The notes under the pieces: model-generated
The model's database searches: none
What the model was told of the DNA's origin: nothing
Seen by the model: only the letters and a program-made list of their open reading frames with translations
Shown: positions 11,456 to 46,921 of the stretch, piece after piece
How positions within the stretch are numbered: the stretch's first letter is position 1
How the letters are laid out: each line of letters begins with the position of its first letter
Program-made: the position numbers and the translations under genes
From: a bacterium
Lineage (GTDB): Bacteria > Patescibacteriota > Minisyncoccia > JAHIHE01
NCBI GenBank assembly: GCA_030693205.1
Contig: JAUYBG010000019.1
Coordinates: 14,496 to 78,495, forward strand
Length of the DNA: 64,000 nt
Direction of reading: 5' to 3'

Positions 11456-11899
11456 ATGATTATTGATACCTTGAAGGAGAATAAATTTTTTATGCAATTT
11501 GGCAAGTTTTTTATCGTCGGGATTTTGAATACAGGTCTTGATTTTGCTGTTCTAAATTTTTTAATGTGGATGACGCAAACTTATAAAGGGCCGTCTATGG
11601 TTATATTCGGCACGATATCGTTTGCCGTAGCGGTGACGAACAGCTATTTTTTGAATAAATACTGGACTTTTGGCGATAAAAGCAAAGAGCAGGTTCCTCA
11701 GCAATTTATAAAATTTTTAGCCGTGGCTGTCATAGGACTGGTGTTGAGTAATTCAATTATTTATTTTATAACAACTTTAGTTAATCCGATCTTTGGCTTA
11801 AGTCCGGTTCTTTGGGCGAACTTTGCCAAAGCAGTGGCGACTGGCGTAGTGCTGGTTTGGAACTTCGCGGGATACAAACTGTTTGTGTTTAAAAAGTAA
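11456..11899 (+). CDS. GtrA-family membrane protein (polysaccharide synthesis/flippase-associated)
   Basis: About 147 aa, four TM helices; GtrA-like signature (FxxVGxxNTxxDFxxLNFL ... NKYWTF). Confidence 0.6.
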   Translation: MIIDTLKENKFFMQFGKFFIVGILNTGLDFAVLNFLMWMTQTYKGPSMVIFGTISFAVAVTNSYFLNKYWTFGDKSKEQVPQQFIKFLAVAVIGLVLSNSIIYFITTLVNPIFGLSPVLWANFAKAVATGVVLVWNFAGYKLFVFKK

Positions 11900-11909
11900 A
11901 TTAATTAAT

Positions 11910-13562
11910 ATGTCTCTCGTTCTATATCGCAAATACCGGCCGAAAAATTTCAGCGAGATCATCGGCCAGGAAAAAACAGTGAAAATTTTGACCTCCGCGG
12001 TTGGCTCTGGCAGGGTGGCGCACGCGTATCTTTTTACCGGTCCGCGAGGTACGGGAAAAACCACCATTGCCAGAATTTTGGCCAAAGCGATAAATTGCAC
12101 CGCGAGAATTGGCGGCGAGCCTTGCAATAAATGCGAAAATTGCGTTACGCTGAATACCGGGAGAACCTTTGACGTAGTTGAAATTGATGCGGCTTCCAAT
12201 ACCGGCGTGGATAATATCAGAGATCTCAAAGAAAGCATCGGTTTTTCCCCGACCCATTTGAAGTACAAAGTTTTTATCATTGATGAAGTCCACATGCTAA
12301 GCAAGGGCGCTTTCAACGCTTTGCTAAAAATGCTGGAAGAGCCGCCGGAACACGCTATTTTTGTTTTAGCGACCACCGAAATTCATAAAATCCCGCCGAC
12401 GATCATTTCCCGCGTGCAAAGATTTGATTTCAGGAAATTCAGGCTCGACGAGATCGTTGAAAGGTTAAAGGATATAACCAAGCAGGAAAAAGTAAAAGTG
12501 GAAAAAGGCGTGCTGGAAGTGATCGCTTTATCCGCCGATGGGGGAATGCGAGACGCCGAAAGCATGCTCGGGCAGATAATCTCGCTTGAGGCGCCGGGAG
12601 AAGAAATAAAACTCGCGGAAGTAAAAATGGTTTTAGGGCTGACTGATACGGAATCGGTTTTAAAATTTATCGGATTTATATCAAAAAATCAGTTCAAAGA
12701 AGCGATAATTTTTTTGAATGAAATTACTTTTGAAGGGCAGGATTTGGAGCAATTTGCCGGATCGCTCATAGATATTTTCAGGAAGATCACGATTTTGAAG
12801 ACAAACCGGGATCTGAAAAAATATGTCTTAAGCGATTCTACCGAAGAGCAGGCGGAAAAATTATTAAAATTGGCCGAGGTTTTTAGCGAGCAAGAGTTGC
12901 TTTGGATATTTAAAAAATTGATCACGGCAAAGATCGAGATCAAGTCAGCGGTTTTGCCGCAGATACCGCTGGAAATAACTTTGATCGAATATGATATTTT
13001 TAAGAATAATCGCTTTGCGGTTGGAAAAAAAGCGGAAGCGGCGGTTGAAGCTAAAAAAGAACCGAAAATAGAAATTATAGCTAAAAAAAAATTAAACGAG
13101 AACGTTATTGAGCCGAAAGTTGAGAAACCGATTTTAGTTAAAGAGGCGGCTAAGGAAGAAAAAATTGAAAAAAAAGAACCGGAAGAGTTGGCAAACGAAG
13201 GTTTGATCGGTTTGGGGATCGAAGAAATAAAATCGAGCTGGAATCAAATATTGAAAATCGCTAAAAAATACAATCATTCTATCAGCGCGTTTTTGAAATT
13301 ATCCATACCTCAGGAATTAAAAAAAGATATGTTAATGCTTGCCACGCCTTATAAATTCCACGCGGAGAAACTCAACGATTCTTCCAATCGAAAAATAATC
13401 GAGAAAGTTTTGCTGGAAGTGTTCCCGATCTTAAAAAACATCAAGGTTATGGTTGTTCAGGATGAAAATATAAAAGTGGCCAAAGCGCCGGAAGAAAAAA
13501 ATAAAACAGGAGACTTAAAAGTGGATTCCGCGCTTGAGGTTTTTGGGGGAGAAGTGGAGTAA
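11910..13562 (+). CDS. dnaX: DNA polymerase III subunit gamma/tau
   Basis: Canonical N-terminus (YRKYRPKNFSEIIGQE), Walker A (GPRGTGKTT) and Zn module (CxxCxxC). ATG at 11910 is preferred over the in-frame TTG at 11883. The C-terminal roughly 95 aa are duplicated in ORF 45059..45904. Confidence 0.9.
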   Translation: MSLVLYRKYRPKNFSEIIGQEKTVKILTSAVGSGRVAHAYLFTGPRGTGKTTIARILAKAINCTARIGGEPCNKCENCVTLNTGRTFDVVEIDAASNTGVDNIRDLKESIGFSPTHLKYKVFIIDEVHMLSKGAFNALLKMLEEPPEHAIFVLATTEIHKIPPTIISRVQRFDFRKFRLDEIVERLKDITKQEKVKVEKGVLEVIALSADGGMRDAESMLGQIISLEAPGEEIKLAEVKMVLGLTDTESVLKFIGFISKNQFKEAIIFLNEITFEGQDLEQFAGSLIDIFRKITILKTNRDLKKYVLSDSTEEQAEKLLKLAEVFSEQELLWIFKKLITAKIEIKSAVLPQIPLEITLIEYDIFKNNRFAVGKKAEAAVEAKKEPKIEIIAKKKLNENVIEPKVEKPILVKEAAKEEKIEKKEPEELANEGLIGLGIEEIKSSWNQILKIAKKYNHSISAFLKLSIPQELKKDMLMLATPYKFHAEKLNDSSNRKIIEKVLLEVFPILKNIKVMVVQDENIKVAKAPEEKNKTGDLKVDSALEVFGGEVE

Positions 13563-13861: not shown

Positions 13862-13932
13862 TGCGGGATCGTCTAATGGTAGGACAGCGCCCTTTGAAGG
13901 CGCTTATCATGGTTCGAATCCATGTCCCGCAG
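13862..13932 (+). tRNA. tRNA-Gln (anticodon UUG)
   Basis: Hand-folded cloverleaf: acceptor TGCGGGA/TCCCGCA with U1-A72, anticodon stem GCGCC/GGCGC, loop CTTTGAA, T-arm CATGG-TTCGAAT-CCATG, discriminator G. Confidence 0.8.
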
Positions 13933-14133
13933 CCGCGAAAATATAATCGGATCGTCATATCAACAAGTGCTGAATACGCGCTTGTTTTGTTTTTAACAAG
14001 CCAAAATAAGTTTAAAACTGTTTACAAAAGGGTTAAAATATGCTAATGTTGTAAAGTTAAATGAACGGCAGTTAAAGCTGATTATAGACAAGAAATTTAG
14101 TATATTTAACTAAAATATATCGTTTTATAATTT

Positions 14134-23901: not shown

Positions 23902-26496
23902 ATGAACAAAAAGAACAGAAAAGTAAAAGAAATGCAAAGAAAGATACCGTCAATGATGGCAATCTTTATTTTGCTGGCAGCCGTGATGGCAGGCATTCCA
24001 GGCGCAATTGCGGCACCAATCCCGACAATCGAATTCACTTATGTTCCGCCAGTTGGGAGTTATGATAATTTGCAAGGGAAAGTGACAAATGTTACCCCGG
24101 CGGATTATAAAGTCGCGGTCTACATCTATGTATACGGATGGTGGACAAAACCATATTTTGCATCGCCAATAACATCTATTGGCAGTGATGGAACGTGGTC
24201 TTGCGATATAACAACCGGTGGTTCCGATCAAACTGCGACGAGAGTTAAGGCATATTTGATTCCGAATGGATATAATCCACCCGGCATGAGTGGAGGAGGA
24301 GTATTTCCTGCCGAATTAAGCGCAAATGCAGTTGCCGTTGTCGAGTATGACAGAACTGTTACACCCACGCCAACACCCACGCCAACACCCACGCCCGCGG
24401 CAAAAATAGAAATAACATATATGCCGCCATTTGGTAGCATTGGTAACTTAGGTAACTTACAAGGAAAAGTTTCCAATGTAAATCCGGCGGATTATAAAGT
24501 TGCTGTTTACATTTATGTAAGCGGATGGTGGACAAAACCCAGTTTTAGTTCGCCACTGACATCGATTCAAAATAATGGTGTTTGGGAAACCTTTATAACA
24601 ACCGGTGGTTCCGATCAGTATGCGACGAGAGTTAAGGCATATTTGATTCCGAATGGATATACTCCTCCAACAATGAGCGGGCAGCAAATATTTTCAGATG
24701 AACTGGAAGCAAAAGCAGTTGCCAAAATTGAAGCTCCTAAGAGACAGGAGAGGATAATAAACTTTTCCGGACGTGATTGGATAGTGAAATACAGCGCTAT
24801 TCCAGAGGGTCCGGGATTGAATTATTTCTCTGACGGCACTGACAGTGTTCGAGTTGACGAACAAGGCCAGTTGCACTTGAAAATAATCAAAGTAGGAAAC
24901 ACCTGGTATAGTTCCGAAGTGATATCGAAAGATTCTCTCGGATATGGCGAGTACATTTTCTATCTTGCCAGCAGGGCCGACCAGATTGACAAGAATGTCG
25001 TGTTAGGAATGTTTACTTGGGATACTTTTGCTCCATCGTTTAATCATCGTGAGATAGATATCGAAATCTCAAGGTGGGGACAGGATGCCAATGATAATTC
25101 CCAATTTGTGGTACAACCTTGGAATAGAGCTAGCAATATGCACAGGTTCAATGCGGACTTTGCCGGAAATTATTCGGTGCACTCCTTTAATTGGAGCGAT
25201 TCGAAGATCAGCTTCAAGAGTTTAAGAGGACTAAATGTTTCTTCTCAAAATTCTTCCGATCTGATCAACTCCTGGGATTATATGGGCAGCGATATTCCGC
25301 CTCCGGGTGGAGAAAATGCGCGCATAAACTTATGGCTGTTTGATCCGTCCAATGTTTTGGGCAAGCCACCGTCTGACGGCAAAGAAGTCGAGGTGATCAT
25401 CAGAAAATTTAAGTTTGTTCCCCAAGGATCCGAGATCGTCTTAACCCCGAGGATATTTGTCGCTAAAAGCGCCAGTTCGGCAACTCTTCCTGTTGGAGGA
25501 GGAAATGCCAGCTACTCTTATAAAGTAGTGAATACGGGAGATTTGACCCTGTCAAATATAACGCTTATTGACGATAAGTGCGCGCCGGTTGTTTATGCCG
25601 ATGGCGACGTAAATTCCAATTCACAGCTTGAAACTACGGAAACGTGGAATTATGCTTGCGAAAAAAGAATAAACGAAACAACGACAAATATAGTGACGGC
25701 CACAGGAAACCATAGCGGATCTTCGGTATCAGATAGCGATACAGCCACAGTGACAGTTGCAGTCCCGACACCCACGCCGTATAAAGGAGGAGGCAGCGAT
25801 TCTTCTACTGGCAGTAGCGGAGGCGGTGGAAGCGGAGTTACGTCTTGCGAAAAATTTGCAAATATAAAAAAGAGCTTCAATAACGAAGTGTTTGTTTCTG
25901 TCAAGTCAAATCCTGCTGTCTATAAGTTTAAGGATTTGGAAATAGTGAAAGAAGCAGGGTTTACACCGACCTATTCCGAAGGGTTAGTAACTGCCAAAAG
26001 CGAGGATCTCCGAGGAAGGTCAGCATGTGTCTCGGTCGACGCTCCCAGTAGCACAAAAGTTGTTTATTTCAACCTTTGGGTTGGTACAAGCAATTATAGT
26101 AGTTCAAGCAAGATCAAAGACGGTTTTATCTTGTTTGGAATGCCGAAAGATCTGTCTGATAGCGATATCGGGAACATCAAGCTGATGTTTTTCAAAAATG
26201 GTATATGGAAAGACATAAATTACGAAAAAGTTGAAGAAGGAATTTATAAAGCATATGTACCAGGATTCGGAAATTTCGTTTTGGCGGAGATATTCGAATT
26301 GAAGATCGTTCCTGTAACTCCGGAAGAGATAGAAAAAATTAAATCAATGCAGAATGCCAACGTTCCTAAAGAAACAACGAAGCCTTTGCCTGTTGAACCA
26401 GTCAATACTCCCCAGCAAACGCCAGGGTTTTTCTTGGCAGGTGCAATTCTGGCAATAGCTTTCGCCTGTATCTTTGGAAGAAAGAAAAATAATTAA
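23902..26496 (+). CDS. large secreted/surface protein: signal peptide, two tandem roughly 115-aa repeats, (TP)n linker, GH16-like domain, DUF11-like repeat, C-terminal PGF-CTERM-like anchor
   Basis: N-terminal signal peptide. Repeats cover about 24013-24352 and 24400-24742, roughly 60% identical, joined by TPTPTPTPTPTP (24361-24399). EIDIE motif (HREIDIEISRWGQ) resembles the GH16 catalytic E-x-D-x-E. C-terminus is QQTPGFFLAGAILAIAFACIFGRKKNN. Confidence 0.7.
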   Translation: MNKKNRKVKEMQRKIPSMMAIFILLAAVMAGIPGAIAAPIPTIEFTYVPPVGSYDNLQGKVTNVTPADYKVAVYIYVYGWWTKPYFASPITSIGSDGTWSCDITTGGSDQTATRVKAYLIPNGYNPPGMSGGGVFPAELSANAVAVVEYDRTVTPTPTPTPTPTPAAKIEITYMPPFGSIGNLGNLQGKVSNVNPADYKVAVYIYVSGWWTKPSFSSPLTSIQNNGVWETFITTGGSDQYATRVKAYLIPNGYTPPTMSGQQIFSDELEAKAVAKIEAPKRQERIINFSGRDWIVKYSAIPEGPGLNYFSDGTDSVRVDEQGQLHLKIIKVGNTWYSSEVISKDSLGYGEYIFYLASRADQIDKNVVLGMFTWDTFAPSFNHREIDIEISRWGQDANDNSQFVVQPWNRASNMHRFNADFAGNYSVHSFNWSDSKISFKSLRGLNVSSQNSSDLINSWDYMGSDIPPPGGENARINLWLFDPSNVLGKPPSDGKEVEVIIRKFKFVPQGSEIVLTPRIFVAKSASSATLPVGGGNASYSYKVVNTGDLTLSNITLIDDKCAPVVYADGDVNSNSQLETTETWNYACEKRINETTTNIVTATGNHSGSSVSDSDTATVTVAVPTPTPYKGGGSDSSTGSSGGGGSGVTSCEKFANIKKSFNNEVFVSVKSNPAVYKFKDLEIVKEAGFTPTYSEGLVTAKSEDLRGRSACVSVDAPSSTKVVYFNLWVGTSNYSSSSKIKDGFILFGMPKDLSDSDIGNIKLMFFKNGIWKDINYEKVEEGIYKAYVPGFGNFVLAEIFELKIVPVTPEEIEKIKSMQNANVPKETTKPLPVEPVNTPQQTPGFFLAGAILAIAFACIFGRKKNN

Positions 26497-34325: not shown

Positions 34326-34394
34326 TTATCACACGCATCTTTAGTTCGCGTGAATGGTGGAAAATATATAATAAAAATTAGGATCAATTTTAAT

Positions 34395-34454
34395 TTATCG
34401 TTAAAAAATTCATATGGCGCGGATATTTAGTTTTGCTTTGGGAAATATTTGGCG
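34395..34454 (+). repeat. 60-bp perfect direct repeat, copy 1
   Basis: TTATCGTTAAAAAATTCATATGGCGCGGATATTTAGTTTTGCTTTGGGAAATATTTGGCG is identical to 35562-35621. Confidence 0.8.
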
Positions 34455-34645
34455 ATGGCACTCCTTCGCTTACCTCCTACGCTCCTCTTTCGCCAAAGGC
34501 TTCAGAAGGACGCAGTAAAGCTACGGAAGGTCAAGAAAGCTTCGGAAGCGCACAGCGAAAATTTATCCCTCACCAAATAATTAATTCAAGATTTTTTTAA
34601 TTATTTAAACTGAGTTAATATTTTTATCCATCGACTGACTTATAT

Positions 34646-34655
34646 TGCTATAGCA
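34646..34655. promoter_or_regulatory. palindromic operator-like site TGCTATAGCA (copy 1), embedded in a longer ACTGA...TCAGT palindrome
   Basis: Perfect 10-bp palindrome, one of three related copies around the PaaX-like regulator gene. Confidence 0.35.
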
Positions 34656-34730
34656 TAATTTTTCAGTTGGTATCTTTCCATCGCGGCCGGGTTTTTTTAA
34701 AAAATCATTATTATTACTACTGATTTTTCT

Positions 34731-34740
34731 TGCTATAGCA
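34731..34740. promoter_or_regulatory. palindromic operator-like site TGCTATAGCA (copy 2), upstream of the PaaX-like gene
   Basis: Perfect palindrome followed by TAAAAATTCAGTTATAATAT, which contains a TATAAT -10-like element. Confidence 0.35.
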
Positions 34741-34843
34741 TAAAAATTCAGTTATAATATAAAAAAGATGTCGTAAGGAAAAGACATAGCGATACGGTGG
34801 TATAATTTTCACAAAAACAGAATTAAGCAAAGAATTAAATAAA

Positions 34844-35413: not shown

Positions 35414-35433
35414 TAACCATAACTGAATTTTCT

Positions 35434-35443
35434 TGCCATAGCA
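35434..35443. promoter_or_regulatory. palindromic operator-like site TGCCATAGCA (copy 3, one mismatch) inside a roughly 36-bp palindrome
   Basis: AACTGAATTTTCTTGCCATAGCATAAATTTTCAGTT is near-perfectly palindromic; located just downstream of the PaaX-like gene. Confidence 0.35.
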
Positions 35444-35561
35444 TAAATTTTCAGTTAGCGCATTGTATTTTTATATAAGTCAAGATAATTCAAGCGTTTG
35501 CTTGTTTGCCGACAGACACAAAATTCGGCGGTGATTTTTTGCCAAAAGTTTCTAATTTAAC

Positions 35562-35621
35562 TTATCGTTAAAAAATTCATATGGCGCGGATATTTAGTTT
35601 TGCTTTGGGAAATATTTGGCG
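35562..35621 (+). repeat. 60-bp perfect direct repeat, copy 2
   Basis: Identical to 34395-34454; lies 34 nt upstream of ORF 35655. Confidence 0.8.
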
Positions 35622-35654
35622 GTGGAAATTTAGCAATGATTAATTTTAAAAAAC

Positions 35655-43266: not shown

Positions 43267-43980
43267 ATGACCATGCAAACAAGAAAAAACCCTTGGAATA
43301 AGGGTTTTACAAAAGAGAACAATCTGTCAGTTTTGAAGATTTCCAAGACGATGAAGGCAAAGAAAATAGATAATTTTGCCGATTGGAGAAAAAAGAACGT
43401 AGAGAAAGGTTTATTAAAAAGCGAATATCCTGATTTTGAAAAAAACGAAGATTTGGCAGAGCTTATAGGGGTTGTTTTAGGTGACGGGCACATACAATCA
43501 TTTCCAAGGACTGAGCGACTAACCATATCGTCACATTCAAAAAACAAGGGGTTTATTAATAGATATGCTCGCCTTATCGAAAAAGTAATCAAAAAAAAAC
43601 CTTATTGCGAGAAAATCAAAAACGCAAATTGTGTACGAATAAGTATTTACGAGAAATTTATTAGCAAAAGACTAAAAATACCGGTAGGAAATCGTAAAGA
43701 TTTAGTTGCTAAAATTCCTGAATGGATAAGTGCCGATAGAAAGGTTTTAATAGGATATTTACGAGGGCTATATGAAGCGGAAGGTTCTTTTTGCGTCCAT
43801 AAGCCGACTTGTACTTATAAATTTTTGTTTAGTAATTGGAATAAAACTTTATTGGATAATGTTTATGGCGCGTTAAAAATTTTAGGTTTTCATCCCCACA
43901 GAAGCACACATCAGATCCAAGTTTCAAAAAAGGAAGAAGTTTATAAAATTAAAGAATTGATAAAATTCAGGCAGTATTAA
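43267..43980 (+). CDS. LAGLIDADG-family homing endonuclease (single-chain, two motifs), free-standing
   Basis: Two LAGLIDADG motifs (LIGVVLGDGHI and LRGLYEAEGSF) about 95 aa apart; 237 aa; not embedded in an intron- or intein-containing gene in this window. Confidence 0.75.
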   Translation: MTMQTRKNPWNKGFTKENNLSVLKISKTMKAKKIDNFADWRKKNVEKGLLKSEYPDFEKNEDLAELIGVVLGDGHIQSFPRTERLTISSHSKNKGFINRYARLIEKVIKKKPYCEKIKNANCVRISIYEKFISKRLKIPVGNRKDLVAKIPEWISADRKVLIGYLRGLYEAEGSFCVHKPTCTYKFLFSNWNKTLLDNVYGALKILGFHPHRSTHQIQVSKKEEVYKIKELIKFRQY

Positions 43981-43984
43981 ATAT

Positions 43985-44055
43985 TGGGAGATCTGCTAAA
44001 GGTAGGCAAGTGGGCTCTGAACCCATTAATCTAGGTTCGATTCCTAGTCTCCCAG
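43985..44055 (+). tRNA. tRNA-Gln (anticodon CUG)
   Basis: Acceptor TGGGAGA/TCTCCCA with U1-A72, anticodon stem GTGGG/CCCAT, loop CTCTGAA, T-arm CTAGG-TTCGATT-CCTAG, discriminator G. Confidence 0.75.
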
Positions 44056-44076
44056 CATTATTTTTAAAAATTATTT

Positions 44077-44784
44077 ATGTTTGTAAATGCTATAAAAATT
44101 GCAAGTAAGGCAATGTTTCCAATATTTCGCGTAGAGCAAGTTACATCTTCGCAAATGATAGTTAATGTGGCGGGTACCGGTTTTTTTATAAGTTCTAATG
44201 GTAATTTTATTTCTGTTGCACATGTTTTTGATAATACTACCAATAATCCGAAATATTTTTATTTTGGAAAGCTACCAACAGATTTACAAAGTCCACCTAT
44301 AGAAATTGAGGAAATTATTAGAGATGATTCAAATGATATTTATATTGGCAGAGTTAAGAAAAAAACGGATACTTTTTTTCGATTATCATCAAAATTAGTT
44401 GATATTGGAAGAACTATTTGTATTGGGGGGTATCCTTTAGCTCAAATTACTAACAATAGTCAGGGTGGATTAGAACTTATGGGGGTTAGAAGATACTTTC
44501 AGCCATCTTTTATTTTAGATTATATAAAAGCTAATTCAGATAATGGTGCAGGAAAAATTCGTCTTCATGATGGTTTTATTGTAAGAGATATTGGACTGTT
44601 TGGAATGAGCGGTGGTCCGGTATTTGATACAACTGGAACTTTAGTAGGTATTCAGGGATCTGTCATGCCTCCACGTCAAAGTACTGGAGCGAATGGACGA
44701 ACTATTTCTGTTGAAAATGCGGTAGTTATAAGAAGTAATTTAGTCTTGGATTTTATTAAACATAGAGGAATTAGGATAAATTAA
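44077..44784 (+). CDS. trypsin-like serine protease (S1 family, Trypsin_2-like)
   Basis: Catalytic triad context: His (FISVAHVF), Asp (DIYIGRV), Ser (GMSGGPVF, cf. GDSGGP). Confidence 0.65.
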   Translation: MFVNAIKIASKAMFPIFRVEQVTSSQMIVNVAGTGFFISSNGNFISVAHVFDNTTNNPKYFYFGKLPTDLQSPPIEIEEIIRDDSNDIYIGRVKKKTDTFFRLSSKLVDIGRTICIGGYPLAQITNNSQGGLELMGVRRYFQPSFILDYIKANSDNGAGKIRLHDGFIVRDIGLFGMSGGPVFDTTGTLVGIQGSVMPPRQSTGANGRTISVENAVVIRSNLVLDFIKHRGIRIN

Positions 44785-44802: not shown

Positions 44803-45054
44803 ATGAAATTAAATGAAGAACAAAAGAATGTAGTAATAACAAAATTATCAAATTTTTTCCGCACCTCTTGCATTATTTGTAATGGTAGCGAGTGGTTATT
44901 AAATGATACCATTTATGAGTTAAGAGAATTTATGGGTGGTAGTTTCATTCTTGGCGAAAAAGTGAGCATTTTTCCTGTTTTAGCTGTTTCGTGTAAGTCG
45001 TGTGGCCATACGCACTACTTTAATGCTATTTTAATTGGAGTAGTAAAAAAATAA
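44803..45054 (+). CDS. small zinc-ribbon protein (83 aa), hypothetical
   Basis: CIICNGSEW ... CKSCGHTHY gives two CxxC pairs. Confidence 0.4.
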   Translation: MKLNEEQKNVVITKLSNFFRTSCIICNGSEWLLNDTIYELREFMGGSFILGEKVSIFPVLAVSCKSCGHTHYFNAILIGVVKK

Positions 45055-45058
45055 GAAA

Positions 45059-45904
45059 ATGGAAAAAACTAAATCTCCTATAACAATTTCGGAAGAAACA
45101 CAAATTGATCGACCAGTTAGCCGGAAATTTTTTTCAATGGATTATAGAGATTGGTTTCGCTTAAAAAAAATGATAAGTAGAATTTCTGACGGACAGAATT
45201 GGTGGAACAGTCAAAATTGGTGGAGTAATTTTGCGTGGTTTACATCTGCGACAAGCATTTCGTCTCTTTACGCTTATATATCTACTCCCGAAATAGATGT
45301 TAATAAAAAATACTTTTTCTATTTTTGTACCATTTTCTCGTTTATAACGACAATTATTTTATTTTTTGTTGGGCGTAAATTTTCACAGTCTAATTTTGCT
45401 TCTAAAAAAGAAATATTGGAAGAAATGAATGAAATAGAACAGGGCGAAAAAGTTACAAAAGATGATAAAGAAATTGTTGTTGAACCGGAAAAACTCTCCG
45501 ATGTTAAAGAAAAAGTTAAAAAACCGATTTCCCTGATTGTTATGAAAGCGGACAAAGAGGATATGCCTTCCGGAATTTCTAAAAACAAAAATTTTGGCGA
45601 TGGTGCGGTGAATATTAATATTTCCGAAATTATTTTAGGATGGAACAGTATTTTGAAAGGAGTTAAAAATTACGACCATTCGGTTAGTGCTTTTTTGAAA
45701 TTATCTACAGCGAAGGAGATTAAGAAAAATTTACTCGTAATCGCCACGCCTTATAAATTTCACGCGGAAAAATTAAGCGAGCCGGCGAATCGTCTGATAA
45801 TCGAAAAAGTGATTGCTGAAGTTTTTCCGAAAATCTTGGGAATGAAAATACAAGTTATTCAGGATGAAAATATAAAAATAACATCTAAAAGGGTTGAGGA
45901 ATAG
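45059..45904 (+). CDS. membrane protein carrying a paralogous copy of the DnaX C-terminal domain
   Basis: Two N-terminal TM helices and a K/E-rich linker. The C-terminal roughly 92 aa (GWNSILKGVKNYDHSVSAFLKLSTAKEIKKNLLVIATPYKFHAEKLSEPANRLIIEKVIAEVFPKILGMKIQVIQDENIKI) are about 60% identical to the C-terminus of DnaX at 11910..13562. Confidence 0.6.
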   Translation: MEKTKSPITISEETQIDRPVSRKFFSMDYRDWFRLKKMISRISDGQNWWNSQNWWSNFAWFTSATSISSLYAYISTPEIDVNKKYFFYFCTIFSFITTIILFFVGRKFSQSNFASKKEILEEMNEIEQGEKVTKDDKEIVVEPEKLSDVKEKVKKPISLIVMKADKEDMPSGISKNKNFGDGAVNINISEIILGWNSILKGVKNYDHSVSAFLKLSTAKEIKKNLLVIATPYKFHAEKLSEPANRLIIEKVIAEVFPKILGMKIQVIQDENIKITSKRVEE

Positions 45905-46075
45905 AAATTAGTATTGTGTTATATGGTGATTGCGTTAAGAAAAGGTGTGTTATTCTCGTCAAATAAGTTCCCCGTCTACGCCGAGGCTTCGGTGGACAGG
46001 CAACATCGTCCCACAAGGCCAGCAAAAATATATATGTCAAACAAAATTTGTAGAATTTTAAATGATAATTAATTT

Positions 46076-46921
46076 ATGAAATCACCTATTCAAGCCAAGA
46101 TAAGAGAAAAAGACCTAAAAGCATATAATCTAGCAAAAAAATTTCTGTTGCGTTTGAAAATAAGCGGAGTTACGGAATCTTTAATACAAAAATATCTTAA
46201 TGCTAGTGCGAGTAAGGCGAGATTTAAAAAAATTGAAGATATTTACGGGAATCTATTATTTTCAGCTCAAAATGCTAATATGAAAGCCGGAGTAATAGGT
46301 AGGTCAATGGAAGGGGGTATAGATAATTTAGGCAAAGTGCTTTTCAATTTTAATCCGGAGTTAGTATTAAAAAAATACCAAAATGATTGGAATTATTTAT
46401 TGGATGATATAAAAAAGAAAGTAAAGCCCAATGGTAAGATAAGACGAAGCTCAAGGAGCATTTGGCCTCAATATTGTAGAACAATATTATCTGCCGCTGA
46501 TTTTATTACTCAATTTGCTACTGCTGATGAATTTTACAAGTGGGTGGACTCTTTTGATAGCGATTATCGCAAGAGGCCGGCCTTGCCGATGATTTTGAGT
46601 TATGAAATAGAAGGTTTTGGTTTTGCTTTGGGTTGCGATTTTCTAAAGGATCTTGGTTATATAAATTTCGGCAAACCGGATGTTCATATAAGGGATATAT
46701 TTGAAGCTTTAAAATTGTGTTCTAAAAACGCAGATGATTATTTATTATTTAAAACAATTGTAAGAATTGCCCAAAATGTAGGAAAATCTCCTTATGAAGT
46801 AGACAAATTATTTTGGCTGATTGGAAGTGGATATTTTTATGACGATCCGCATATTGGAAACGAGGGCAGAACTGGCAGGCATAAAGCCCCATTTATCAGG
46901 TATGCTAAAAAATATTTGTAA
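46076..46921 (+). CDS. hypothetical protein; weak HhH-GPD-like (DNA glycosylase superfamily) signature
   Basis: EIEGFGFALGCDFLKDLGYINFGKPDVHIRDIF resembles the helix-hairpin-helix plus G/P...D(V/T)H..R motif of EndoIII/AlkA-type glycosylases; low certainty. Confidence 0.3.
   Translation: MKSPIQAKIREKDLKAYNLAKKFLLRLKISGVTESLIQKYLNASASKARFKKIEDIYGNLLFSAQNANMKAGVIGRSMEGGIDNLGKVLFNFNPELVLKKYQNDWNYLLDDIKKKVKPNGKIRRSSRSIWPQYCRTILSAADFITQFATADEFYKWVDSFDSDYRKRPALPMILSYEIEGFGFALGCDFLKDLGYINFGKPDVHIRDIFEALKLCSKNADDYLLFKTIVRIAQNVGKSPYEVDKLFWLIGSGYFYDDPHIGNEGRTGRHKAPFIRYAKKYL

Follow-up and report, generated by a model that had tools for sequence, protein, structure and literature searches.

Why would a bacterium with a complete dnaX gene carry a second copy of the DnaX C-terminal domain at the end of a membrane protein? 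This question is raised by gene B, which encodes a protein of 281 amino acids (aa) in a genome of the Patescibacteriota (Minisyncoccia, lineage JAHIHE01; assembly GCA_030693205.1), and which we analyzed in the context of a 64,000-nucleotide (nt) stretch of contig JAUYBG010000019.1 (positions 14,496 to 78,495), hereafter called the window. An initial annotation, made from the sequence alone, had described gene B as a partial clamp-loader domain grafted onto an unrelated membrane anchor. Here we report that the C-terminal domain of gene B was captured from the DnaX clade of its host and is under purifying selection, that its N-terminal part is the conserved core of a protein family with exchangeable C-terminal modules, and that the functional unit is a two-gene cassette formed by gene B and a small upstream gene, gene A, which was absent from the initial annotation. 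In the reading that we favor, to which we assign a probability of about 40%, the pair would be a mobile cassette of a conflict system that has integrated a bait derived from the host replisome.

The DnaX C-terminal domain of gene B and its source

The similarity between the two C-termini held in both protein and DNA alignments. Residues 181-275 of gene B align without gaps with residues 439-533 of the DnaX protein of the same genome (54 of 95 residues identical, 57%; 78% positives; BLASTP E 2e-33), both peptides quoted in the initial annotation are present in the sequence, and the corresponding DNA segments (45599-45883 and 13197-13481) are 64% identical. Both copies match the Pfam family DnaX_C (PF20964), gene B at E 2.8e-5 (24.5 bits) and DnaX at E 1.9e-5 (25.1 bits), with the cutoff at 26.2 bits, and the NCBIfam models of full-length DnaX match gene B over their C-terminal part only. 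A chance or low-complexity similarity was ruled out by the BLASTP and Pfam matches, as well as by an exhaustive HMMER search of 1.84 billion representative sequences, in which gene B matched more than 100 DnaX C-termini.

The bona fide dnaX open reading frame (ORF) occupies positions 11883..13562, with a likely true start at 11910, from which the sequence is an exact match to MDP3057704.1. Its product matches the NCBIfam DnaX equivalogs at E 1e-150 and the Pfam models DNA_pol3_delta2, lid domain, gamma3, and DnaX_C. In contrast to the genuine DnaX, which has all of them, gene B has no AAA, DNA_pol3_delta2, lid, or gamma3 match in Pfam. Judged by this domain content, gene B is not a clamp-loader subunit, and its DnaX_C membership holds at the domain level, with one atypical residue.

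The two copies agree at 44% of third codon positions, their synonymous differences are saturated (pS 0.68) at a nonsynonymous divergence (dN) of 0.35, and their longest exact common run is 20 nt. Together with the 64% DNA identity, the saturation and the short common run indicate that the copies are old and diverged and do not represent a read-level chimera. A Logan assembly of run SRR13727537, made independently, contains 14.5 kb around gene B with 0 mismatches, and a diverged ortholog exists at a second locus, L002 (run SRR22388171); thus, a misassembly of dnaX reads was ruled out.

The captured domain is 57% identical to the DnaX of its own genome and to the DnaX protein P0005, and 55% to P0006, these three proteins being 58-75% identical to each other, versus only 38-40% identity to other DnaX proteins. 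This difference identifies the DnaX of the host's own clade as the donor, and by these identities the depth of the capture is similar to the divergence within that clade. The duplication that the initial annotation had proposed to date is therefore ancient, as judged by its saturated synonymous sites, yet it was drawn from the host's own DnaX clade.

At L002, the fusion protein is represented by two adjacent halves (P0003 and P0004), which are 60-62% identical to gene B and keep the same order of modules. A frameshift in an A7 run (about 2695-2720) breaks the fusion gene there into two overlapping ORFs; it is either a homopolymer assembly error, a genuine inactivation, or a programmed split. 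Between the window and L002, the ratio of nonsynonymous to synonymous substitution rates (dN/dS) is 0.23 for the N-terminal module of gene B, 0.51 for the linker, and 0.15 for DnaX_C. The contrast between the last two values shows that the captured domain is under purifying selection, which is about as strong as that acting on gene A (dN/dS 0.14).

Structure prediction of the common domain, a check suggested by the initial annotation, yielded a confident core with the fold of DnaA domain I and DciA. The AlphaFold2 (AF2) model covers residues 165-281 of gene B only and is based on an alignment of 40 DnaX C-termini; its core has a predicted local distance difference test score (pLDDT) above 90 and the topology a1-a2-b1-b2-a3-a4-b3. 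The best PDB match found with Foldseek is DnaA domain I (4tps; E 8e-5, target TM-score 0.8, root mean square deviation 2.1 A), followed by the DciA N-terminal domain (7ykm, 8a3v) and the N-terminal domains of DnaA (2jmp, 2wp0, 2e0g). The sequence profile of the domain alignment matches the Bacillus subtilis DnaA domain I (4tps_B) at E 1.9e-5 and, weakly, the C-terminal chain of the Thermus (Taq) tau subunit (4iqj_M, E 0.13). In Escherichia coli and Thermus, the tau C-terminal domain binds the alpha subunit of DNA polymerase III (Pol III). A type-II K-homology (KH) fold is common to DnaX domain V, DnaA domain I, and the N-terminal domain of DciA, of which the first two have been described as binders of DnaB (PMC8216460, PMC9912922). 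In B. subtilis, DnaX is recruited by the helicase and in turn recruits PolC (PMC13220808). The grafted piece is the partner-docking KH-type module of tau (domain V class), not the ATPase part of the clamp loader. The term "partial clamp-loader domain" needs correction in this respect, since the piece is a separate C-terminal partner-binding KH domain with homology to DnaA domain I.

Residues T26, W27, N47, and F49 on the surface by which DnaA domain I binds its partners (PMC4285326) align with the DnaX_C positions A211, F212, Y232, and F234, and all four are retained in gene B. S208, Y232, and F234 are 92-100% conserved across 106 DnaX C-domains and retained in gene B, with Y232 and F234 ranking among the best-conserved positions of DnaX_C. 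Of the family signature (W, N-H-S, L, Y-x-F-H, N), gene B keeps all but the invariant Asn, which is replaced with Asp, and the L002 copy has in addition a His to Arg replacement at the next residue. The gene B copy is thus homologous to DnaX_C of the characterized tau proteins (PF20964; E. coli tau domain V, 2AYA; Thermus tau in complex with Pol III alpha, 4IQJ), with a type-II KH-like fold and conserved W, S, L, Y-x-F-H, and N positions. Unlike in DnaX, it is detached from the AAA+ body and domains III/IV, is fused to a membrane hairpin, has Asp for the invariant Asn, and lies within an islet of accessory genes. The best structural matches, DnaA domain I and the N-terminal (DUF721) domain of DciA, belong to the same family of small replisome interaction modules; unlike DnaA and DciA, gene B is closer to DnaX and is devoid of AAA+ or DNA-binding domains and of the DciA-type disordered helicase-binding tail.

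A two-gene cassette with exchangeable C-terminal modules

Gene A is the constant partner of gene B. Each of the 21 fetched loci with a gene B that matches the family profile has gene A directly upstream, in the same orientation, as do two places known from proteins only and the E. coli plasmid described below. More broadly, in 41 of the 47 fetched loci, the gene A stop codon has within -41 to +7 nt the start of a gene for a hydrophobic protein of at least 126 aa. The gene A homologs are 83-98 aa long, with C23, C26, C64, and C67 and the FELREF and FPV motifs invariant in 29-32 homologs, and the gene A proteins of the window and L002 are 81% identical. A search of 5.8 billion sequences yielded 30 clusters of gene A proteins, which lack Pfam domains and informative names alike; a weak match was found to phrog_4293, a family of unknown function. 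Zinc-ribbon look-alikes of the predicted gene A fold were generic and all non-significant, and the weak Lar-like, YacG-like, and S27e-like matches were dismissed as matches of the CxxC knuckles.

The N-terminal half of gene B, considered unrelated to other proteins in the initial annotation, turned out to be the conserved core of a family with an exchangeable C-terminal module. The 412 hits of the exhaustive HMMER search fall into two classes, namely the DnaX proteins and their fragments, aligned over residues 140-280, and about 45 proteins of 120-220 aa, aligned over residues 1-135; these family members were found within the best 150 of the 412 hits (E 1e-16 to 1e-6). The only full-length match among the 1.84 billion representatives is gene B itself. 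Word-indexed protein searches missed nearly all of the family, with 2 and 10 hits, and a scan of genome contigs detected only 3 loci.

The family core comprises an N-terminal head, a membrane hairpin, and a juxtamembrane helix (Table 1). W32 and R34 of the head are invariant in the family alignments, and P19, K36, W55, and W60 are nearly so; in the juxtamembrane helix, K116, E122, M123, and E127 are nearly invariant within the family motif SKxxvLxEMxEIE. The short forms of the family (126-140 aa) end at this helix. The attachment of the second DnaX C-terminus to a membrane module, noted earlier, was confirmed. The description of the N-terminal part as two transmembrane (TM) helices plus an acidic linker was accurate for the strong TM2 and for the charged linker, while the first segment is only marginally hydrophobic; on the Kyte-Doolittle scale, TM2 reaches 2.3, and TM1 has a value of 0.75 in gene B versus a family mean of 1.48 in the same columns. 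The head, with ten K/R versus seven D/E residues, is probably cytoplasmic, and since both flanks of the hairpin are positively charged, an N-in/C-in topology is predicted. Directly before the first hydrophobic segment, gene B contains a tandem duplication of six residues (NWWNSQ / NWWSNF; 45197-45232, aa 47-58), which is absent from L002 and the rest of the family.

Four states of the C-terminus were found in the family: no module (126-140 aa), a DnaJ-like_C11_C domain of about 75 aa (PF11875, E 3.5e-6), in forms of 297-300 aa a module of about 170 aa that matched nothing, and DnaX_C. Within the family of about 45 clusters, the DnaX_C form occurs only in two loci, the window and L002. The module of about 170 aa (L004, 1338-2231; L011, 6251-7153) had no Pfam, NCBIfam, or PDB match; it is linked to restriction-modification loci and represents another candidate bait domain.

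Table 1. Coordinates of the cassette, its domains, and related features in the window
Feature	Position	Strand	Description and evidence
dnaX	11910..13562	+	Bona fide clamp-loader subunit gamma/tau; source lineage of the captured domain
Original DnaX_C domain	13197..13481	+	Inside dnaX; aa 439-533 when counted from 11883
tRNA-Gln(CTG)	43985..44056	+	Upstream edge of the low-GC islet (about 43-47 kb); ARAGORN, Rfam
Serine peptidase	44077..44784	+	Trypsin-like, 18 nt upstream of gene A; Pfam Trypsin_2, E 6.6e-11
Gene A	44803..45054	+	83-aa four-cysteine (zinc-ribbon-like) protein; ends 4 nt before gene B
Gene B	45059..45904	+	281-aa membrane protein; family N-terminal module plus DnaX_C domain
Gene B, head	45059..45229	+	N-terminal, predicted cytosolic, aa 1-57; motifs ITISEETQIDxP, RDWxRxKK, W..N/W
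Gene B, membrane hairpin	45230..45373	+	Weak TM1 aa 58-76, loop aa 77-84, strong TM2 aa 85-105
Gene B, juxtamembrane helix	45374..45439	+	aa 106-127, SKKEILEEMNEIE; last element common to all family members
Gene B, charged linker	45440..45610	+	aa 128-184; poorly conserved, pLDDT 56-61 in the model
Gene B, captured DnaX_C domain	45611..45883	+	aa 185-275; type-II KH / DnaA-domain-I-like fold

Genomic contexts of the cassette

The cassette occurs among defence-type and mobile-element genes in a wide range of genomes. In four loci (L011-14), it closes a HinfI-type restriction-modification operon and a resolvase gene is found nearby; it likewise makes up the two final genes of a DpnII-type operon in Saccharibacteria (L004, L019-22). 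In other genomes, it adjoins GmrSD/HNH, EcoRI-type methylase, and SNase genes (L003), follows an AAA_15/21 ATPase gene (L015), is located near a gene for a NERD protein (L017), or, on one contig with type IV secretion system genes, adjoins GIY-YIG and HNH genes. The cassette is flanked by insertion sequence-type transposases in a Hyphomicrobiaceae genome (L006), and it follows a transfer-messenger RNA (tmRNA)-tRNA-tRNA array in Paceibacterota (L008-10).

Gene A was found in 28 phage contigs of IMG/VR, in 25 of which it is followed by a gene for a hydrophobic membrane protein; in the phage contigs examined in detail, the pair is located between a late transcriptional regulator gene and the small and large terminase genes. 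In phages L023-L041 (e.g., L026, 5890-6714), gene A is paired with a protein of 169-188 aa from the PF20712 family "TRADD-N-associated 2TM" (E 1e-11), and a short gene B of the window type was identified in phage contig L048, between the endolysin/spanin genes and the terminase gene. The window-type membrane module had no Pfam match and an hhalign probability of 0.3% against the phage PF20712 partners; thus, no homology between the two is detectable, and the proposal that they are related was rejected. No relative of the phage-type gene A was found in the INPHARED phage genomes.

In E. coli and Salmonella, the cassette is the sole cargo of 2.68-kb ColE1-like mobilizable plasmids, with 12 records from the former and 2 from the latter. 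Among 5,426 complete E. coli genomes, the pair is present in 14, always on a plasmid and never on the chromosome. The plasmid pTA144-3 (L051; NZ_CP028604.1, 826-1499) encodes WP_001286144.1 (gene A) and WP_000014067.1 (a short gene B); no mention of the E. coli plasmid proteins was found in the literature. With relatives on phage genomes, on small plasmids, and beside restriction-modification genes, an origin from a mobile element, for which the initial annotation had suggested a phage or plasmid, is well supported. Since the short forms are complete and constitute the sole cargo of plasmids, the membrane core is sufficient to work alone.

In the window, the cassette resides in a low-GC islet (G+C content 0.32 versus about 0.40; 0.315-0.33 versus about 0.38-0.42 in the flanks) directly after tRNA-Gln(CTG), in agreement with the accessory neighborhood proposed earlier. 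No repeat of the tRNA-Gln 3' end was found downstream of the islet, and the repeat scan detected no flanking direct repeats; thus, no integration scar is shown. A promoter and terminator scan of the islet found sites no more numerous than in shuffled sequences, and the G+C-rich spacer downstream of gene B (45905-46075) had no Rfam match and a fold z-score of +0.97, so that a structured RNA is not indicated there.

The other genes of the islet were ruled out as members of the cassette because they are missing at every other locus. Among PADLOC systems, the trypsin-like peptidase resembles only the protease domains of RT-Protease_XI (E 7e-10) and LmuA (E 1e-5), and the partner genes of those systems are absent. 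A free-standing LAGLIDADG-type ORF (237 aa, 43267-43980) is located directly upstream of tRNA-Gln(CTG), not inside an intron or intein, and an orphan ORF of 281 aa (46076-46921) downstream of the cassette has faint helix-hairpin-helix and Ogg-like glycosylase matches (E 0.007-0.1). The LAGLIDADG gene and the protease, which the initial annotation had listed as neighbors, are not conserved partners and are missing at L002.

Several other features of the window were recorded. A second tRNA-Gln gene, tRNA-Gln(TTG) (13862-13934), follows dnaX, and the islet starts after tRNA-Gln(CTG), which may be a coincidence. The very AT-rich region at 31-36 kb (G+C content 0.25-0.32) contains a 75-nt direct repeat with 95% identity (34384-34458 / 35551-35625) and a partly inverted family of 35-nt repeats (34634-34668, 34719-34753, and 35422-35456); this region may represent a further islet or regulatory regions in several copies. 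The ORF of 864 aa at 23902-26496 contains an internal duplication (24053-24723) with a period of 387 nt and 75-79% identity.

Proposed function and alternative explanations

We propose that gene B is the membrane component of the mobile two-gene cassette, with gene A as its constant partner, and that its core (the head, hairpin, and juxtamembrane helix) would present the exchangeable C-terminal module to the cytoplasm. The module in the window, as a copy of the host tau KH-type domain, would carry a docking surface for Pol III alpha and/or the DnaB-family helicase. Gene B would most likely display this replisome look-alike at the inner face of the membrane and bind a protein that engages tau, the most plausible target being a phage- or plasmid-encoded replication protein by which the invader has to recruit the host polymerase through tau. 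A precedent is provided by the SPP1 gp40 helicase, which binds the host DnaX to recruit the replisome (PMC6316719, PMC13220808). Such binding may either sequester the replication machinery of the invader or switch on the membrane module, which would lead to abortive infection or exclusion. The role of a decoy or tether for a replisome partner, suggested in the initial annotation, appears the most plausible one for the domain.

Comparison with known systems reveals partial likenesses. Like the two-TM (2TM) conflict effectors (SLATT-type, PF20712, and the TM effectors of the CBASS, Pycsar, and retron types), the cassette combines a small two-segment membrane module and a small soluble partner with carriage by mobile elements and defence loci; the PF20712 2TM proteins are known from conflict systems (PMC7159879). 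Unlike these effectors, gene B has no detectable PF20712, Pfam, or PADLOC homology, no nucleotide-signaling enzyme is linked to the cassette, and membrane damage is here only conjectural. In plants, nucleotide-binding leucine-rich repeat proteins with integrated domains (NLR-ID; e.g., RRS1-WRKY) carry, fused into an immune protein as bait, a copy of a host domain with which pathogens have to engage. Gene B would resemble these integrated-decoy receptors in logic, by analogy, since its host-domain copy is lineage-matched and under selection; unlike them, it has no NLR/STAND module and belongs to another kingdom, and any sensing by it would be conjectural.

Several observations weigh against the proposed bait function. 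The link of the cassette to defence is conjectural, and its association with defence genes is anecdotal, being based on about a dozen distinct contexts. The gene A and gene B proteins from the window, the candidate phyla radiation loci, the phages, and the plasmids had no match in PADLOC-DB v2.0 or NCBIfam, and the AF2 model of gene A, despite a pLDDT of 87, had no significant fold match in the PDB or BFVD. The DnaX_C variant is represented by only two examples, one of which is frame-shifted by what may be a real inactivation, and the weakness of TM1 makes the cytoplasmic position of DnaX_C a prediction. At residue 206 (codon 45674-45676), all 106 DnaX copies have Asn and both fusion proteins have Asp; this residue is placed at the edge of the interface, because it aligns two residues before S23, beside the rim residue P22 of the DnaA domain I surface, and the replacement could signal that the specificity for the partner has changed or been lost. 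In the host, the partner of DnaX_C is only a prediction, Pol III alpha and/or the replicative helicase, drawn from homology to the 4iqj tau chain and from the literature; for the contact between tau and the helicase described in Bacillus, the assignment to DnaX_C is putative.

The strongest of the alternatives, which we nevertheless regard as doubtful, is a toxin-antitoxin (TA) or addiction module, in which the tethered DnaX_C would arrest host replication as a competitor of tau for binding to Pol III alpha or the helicase, and gene A would be the antitoxin. The cassette is similar to type II TA and plasmid addiction modules in being composed of two small overlapping genes, of which the upstream one is more conserved, in being the sole cargo of small plasmids, and in being common on phages. 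Antitoxin-toxin pairs typically have this gene order and translational coupling, the tiny ColE1-like plasmids fit a role in plasmid maintenance, a lineage-matched tau domain would be an effective dominant-negative, and gene A has the lowest dN/dS (0.14). However, complete cassettes exist without the C-terminal domain, including the versions from the plasmids and phage L048, which places the effector activity in the membrane core and not in the variable module. The other modules (DnaJ_C11_C-like and 170-aa) have no obvious toxic activity, and no match to a known TA family was found in Pfam, NCBIfam, or PADLOC. Unlike in type II TA modules, gene B as the presumed toxin would be located in the membrane and carry cytoplasmic domains that can be exchanged.

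An unlikely explanation is that the cassette serves a phage or plasmid membrane function unrelated to the replisome, such as superinfection or entry exclusion or a holin-like role in lysis timing, with DnaX_C as an accidental or oligomerizing appendage. The phage pair is located at the junction of the lysis cassette and the terminase gene, a typical site of moron or exclusion genes, the core family works without a module, and KH and DnaA-domain-I-like domains can self-associate. The dN/dS of 0.15 for DnaX_C, versus 0.51 for the linker, the conservation of its surface residues, and its match to the DnaX lineage of the host would be unexpected for a neutral appendage. A housekeeping replisome-membrane tether or a host replication regulator, similar in logic to membrane-associated replication factors, is considerably less probable. 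It would agree with a lineage-matched DnaX_C under purifying selection and predicted to face the cytoplasm, but not with the presence of only two instances among the 1.84 billion representatives, the location in a low-GC islet after a tRNA gene, the possible frameshift in the ortholog, and the occurrence of the family and its partner gene on phages, on plasmids, and in restriction-modification operons across unrelated phyla. An artefact, either a chimera of dnaX reads or a decaying pseudogene, conceivable a priori in a metagenome-assembled genome and in view of the L002 frameshift, is excluded for the window by the 64% identity with a longest run of 20 nt, the identical independent assembly, the diverged ortholog, and dN/dS values of 0.15-0.23 with an intact reading frame.

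The architecture and distribution of the cassette are solid, and the system is apparently undescribed. Going beyond the conflict cassette with a replisome bait proposed above, the system may represent an undescribed immunity cassette with exchangeable cytoplasmic baits, widely mobile from E. coli to bacteria resembling the candidate phyla radiation, in which the tau KH decoy traps or senses invader replication proteins that hijack Pol III; we consider this extension possible at best. Equally tentative is the analogy by which the decoy would be a bacterial counterpart of the plant integrated-decoy receptors, aimed at the replisome.

If the proposed function is correct, the cassette would be an uncharacterized two-gene system, outside Pfam, NCBIfam, and PADLOC, that is mobile in very distant bacteria, and the 2.68-kb E. 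coli plasmids carrying only the pair would provide a tractable, ready model for the family. It would also be a rare natural case in which a conflict protein has acquired a copy of an interaction domain from the host replisome, and would mark the KH domain at the tau C-terminus as a surface with which invaders have to engage, offering a handle on its partners in little-studied bacteria. The DnaX_C/DnaA-domain-I module would then be a portable protein-binding unit outside replication proteins. Should this interpretation prove incorrect, the locus still offers a clean example of a mobile element that has captured a domain of an essential gene.

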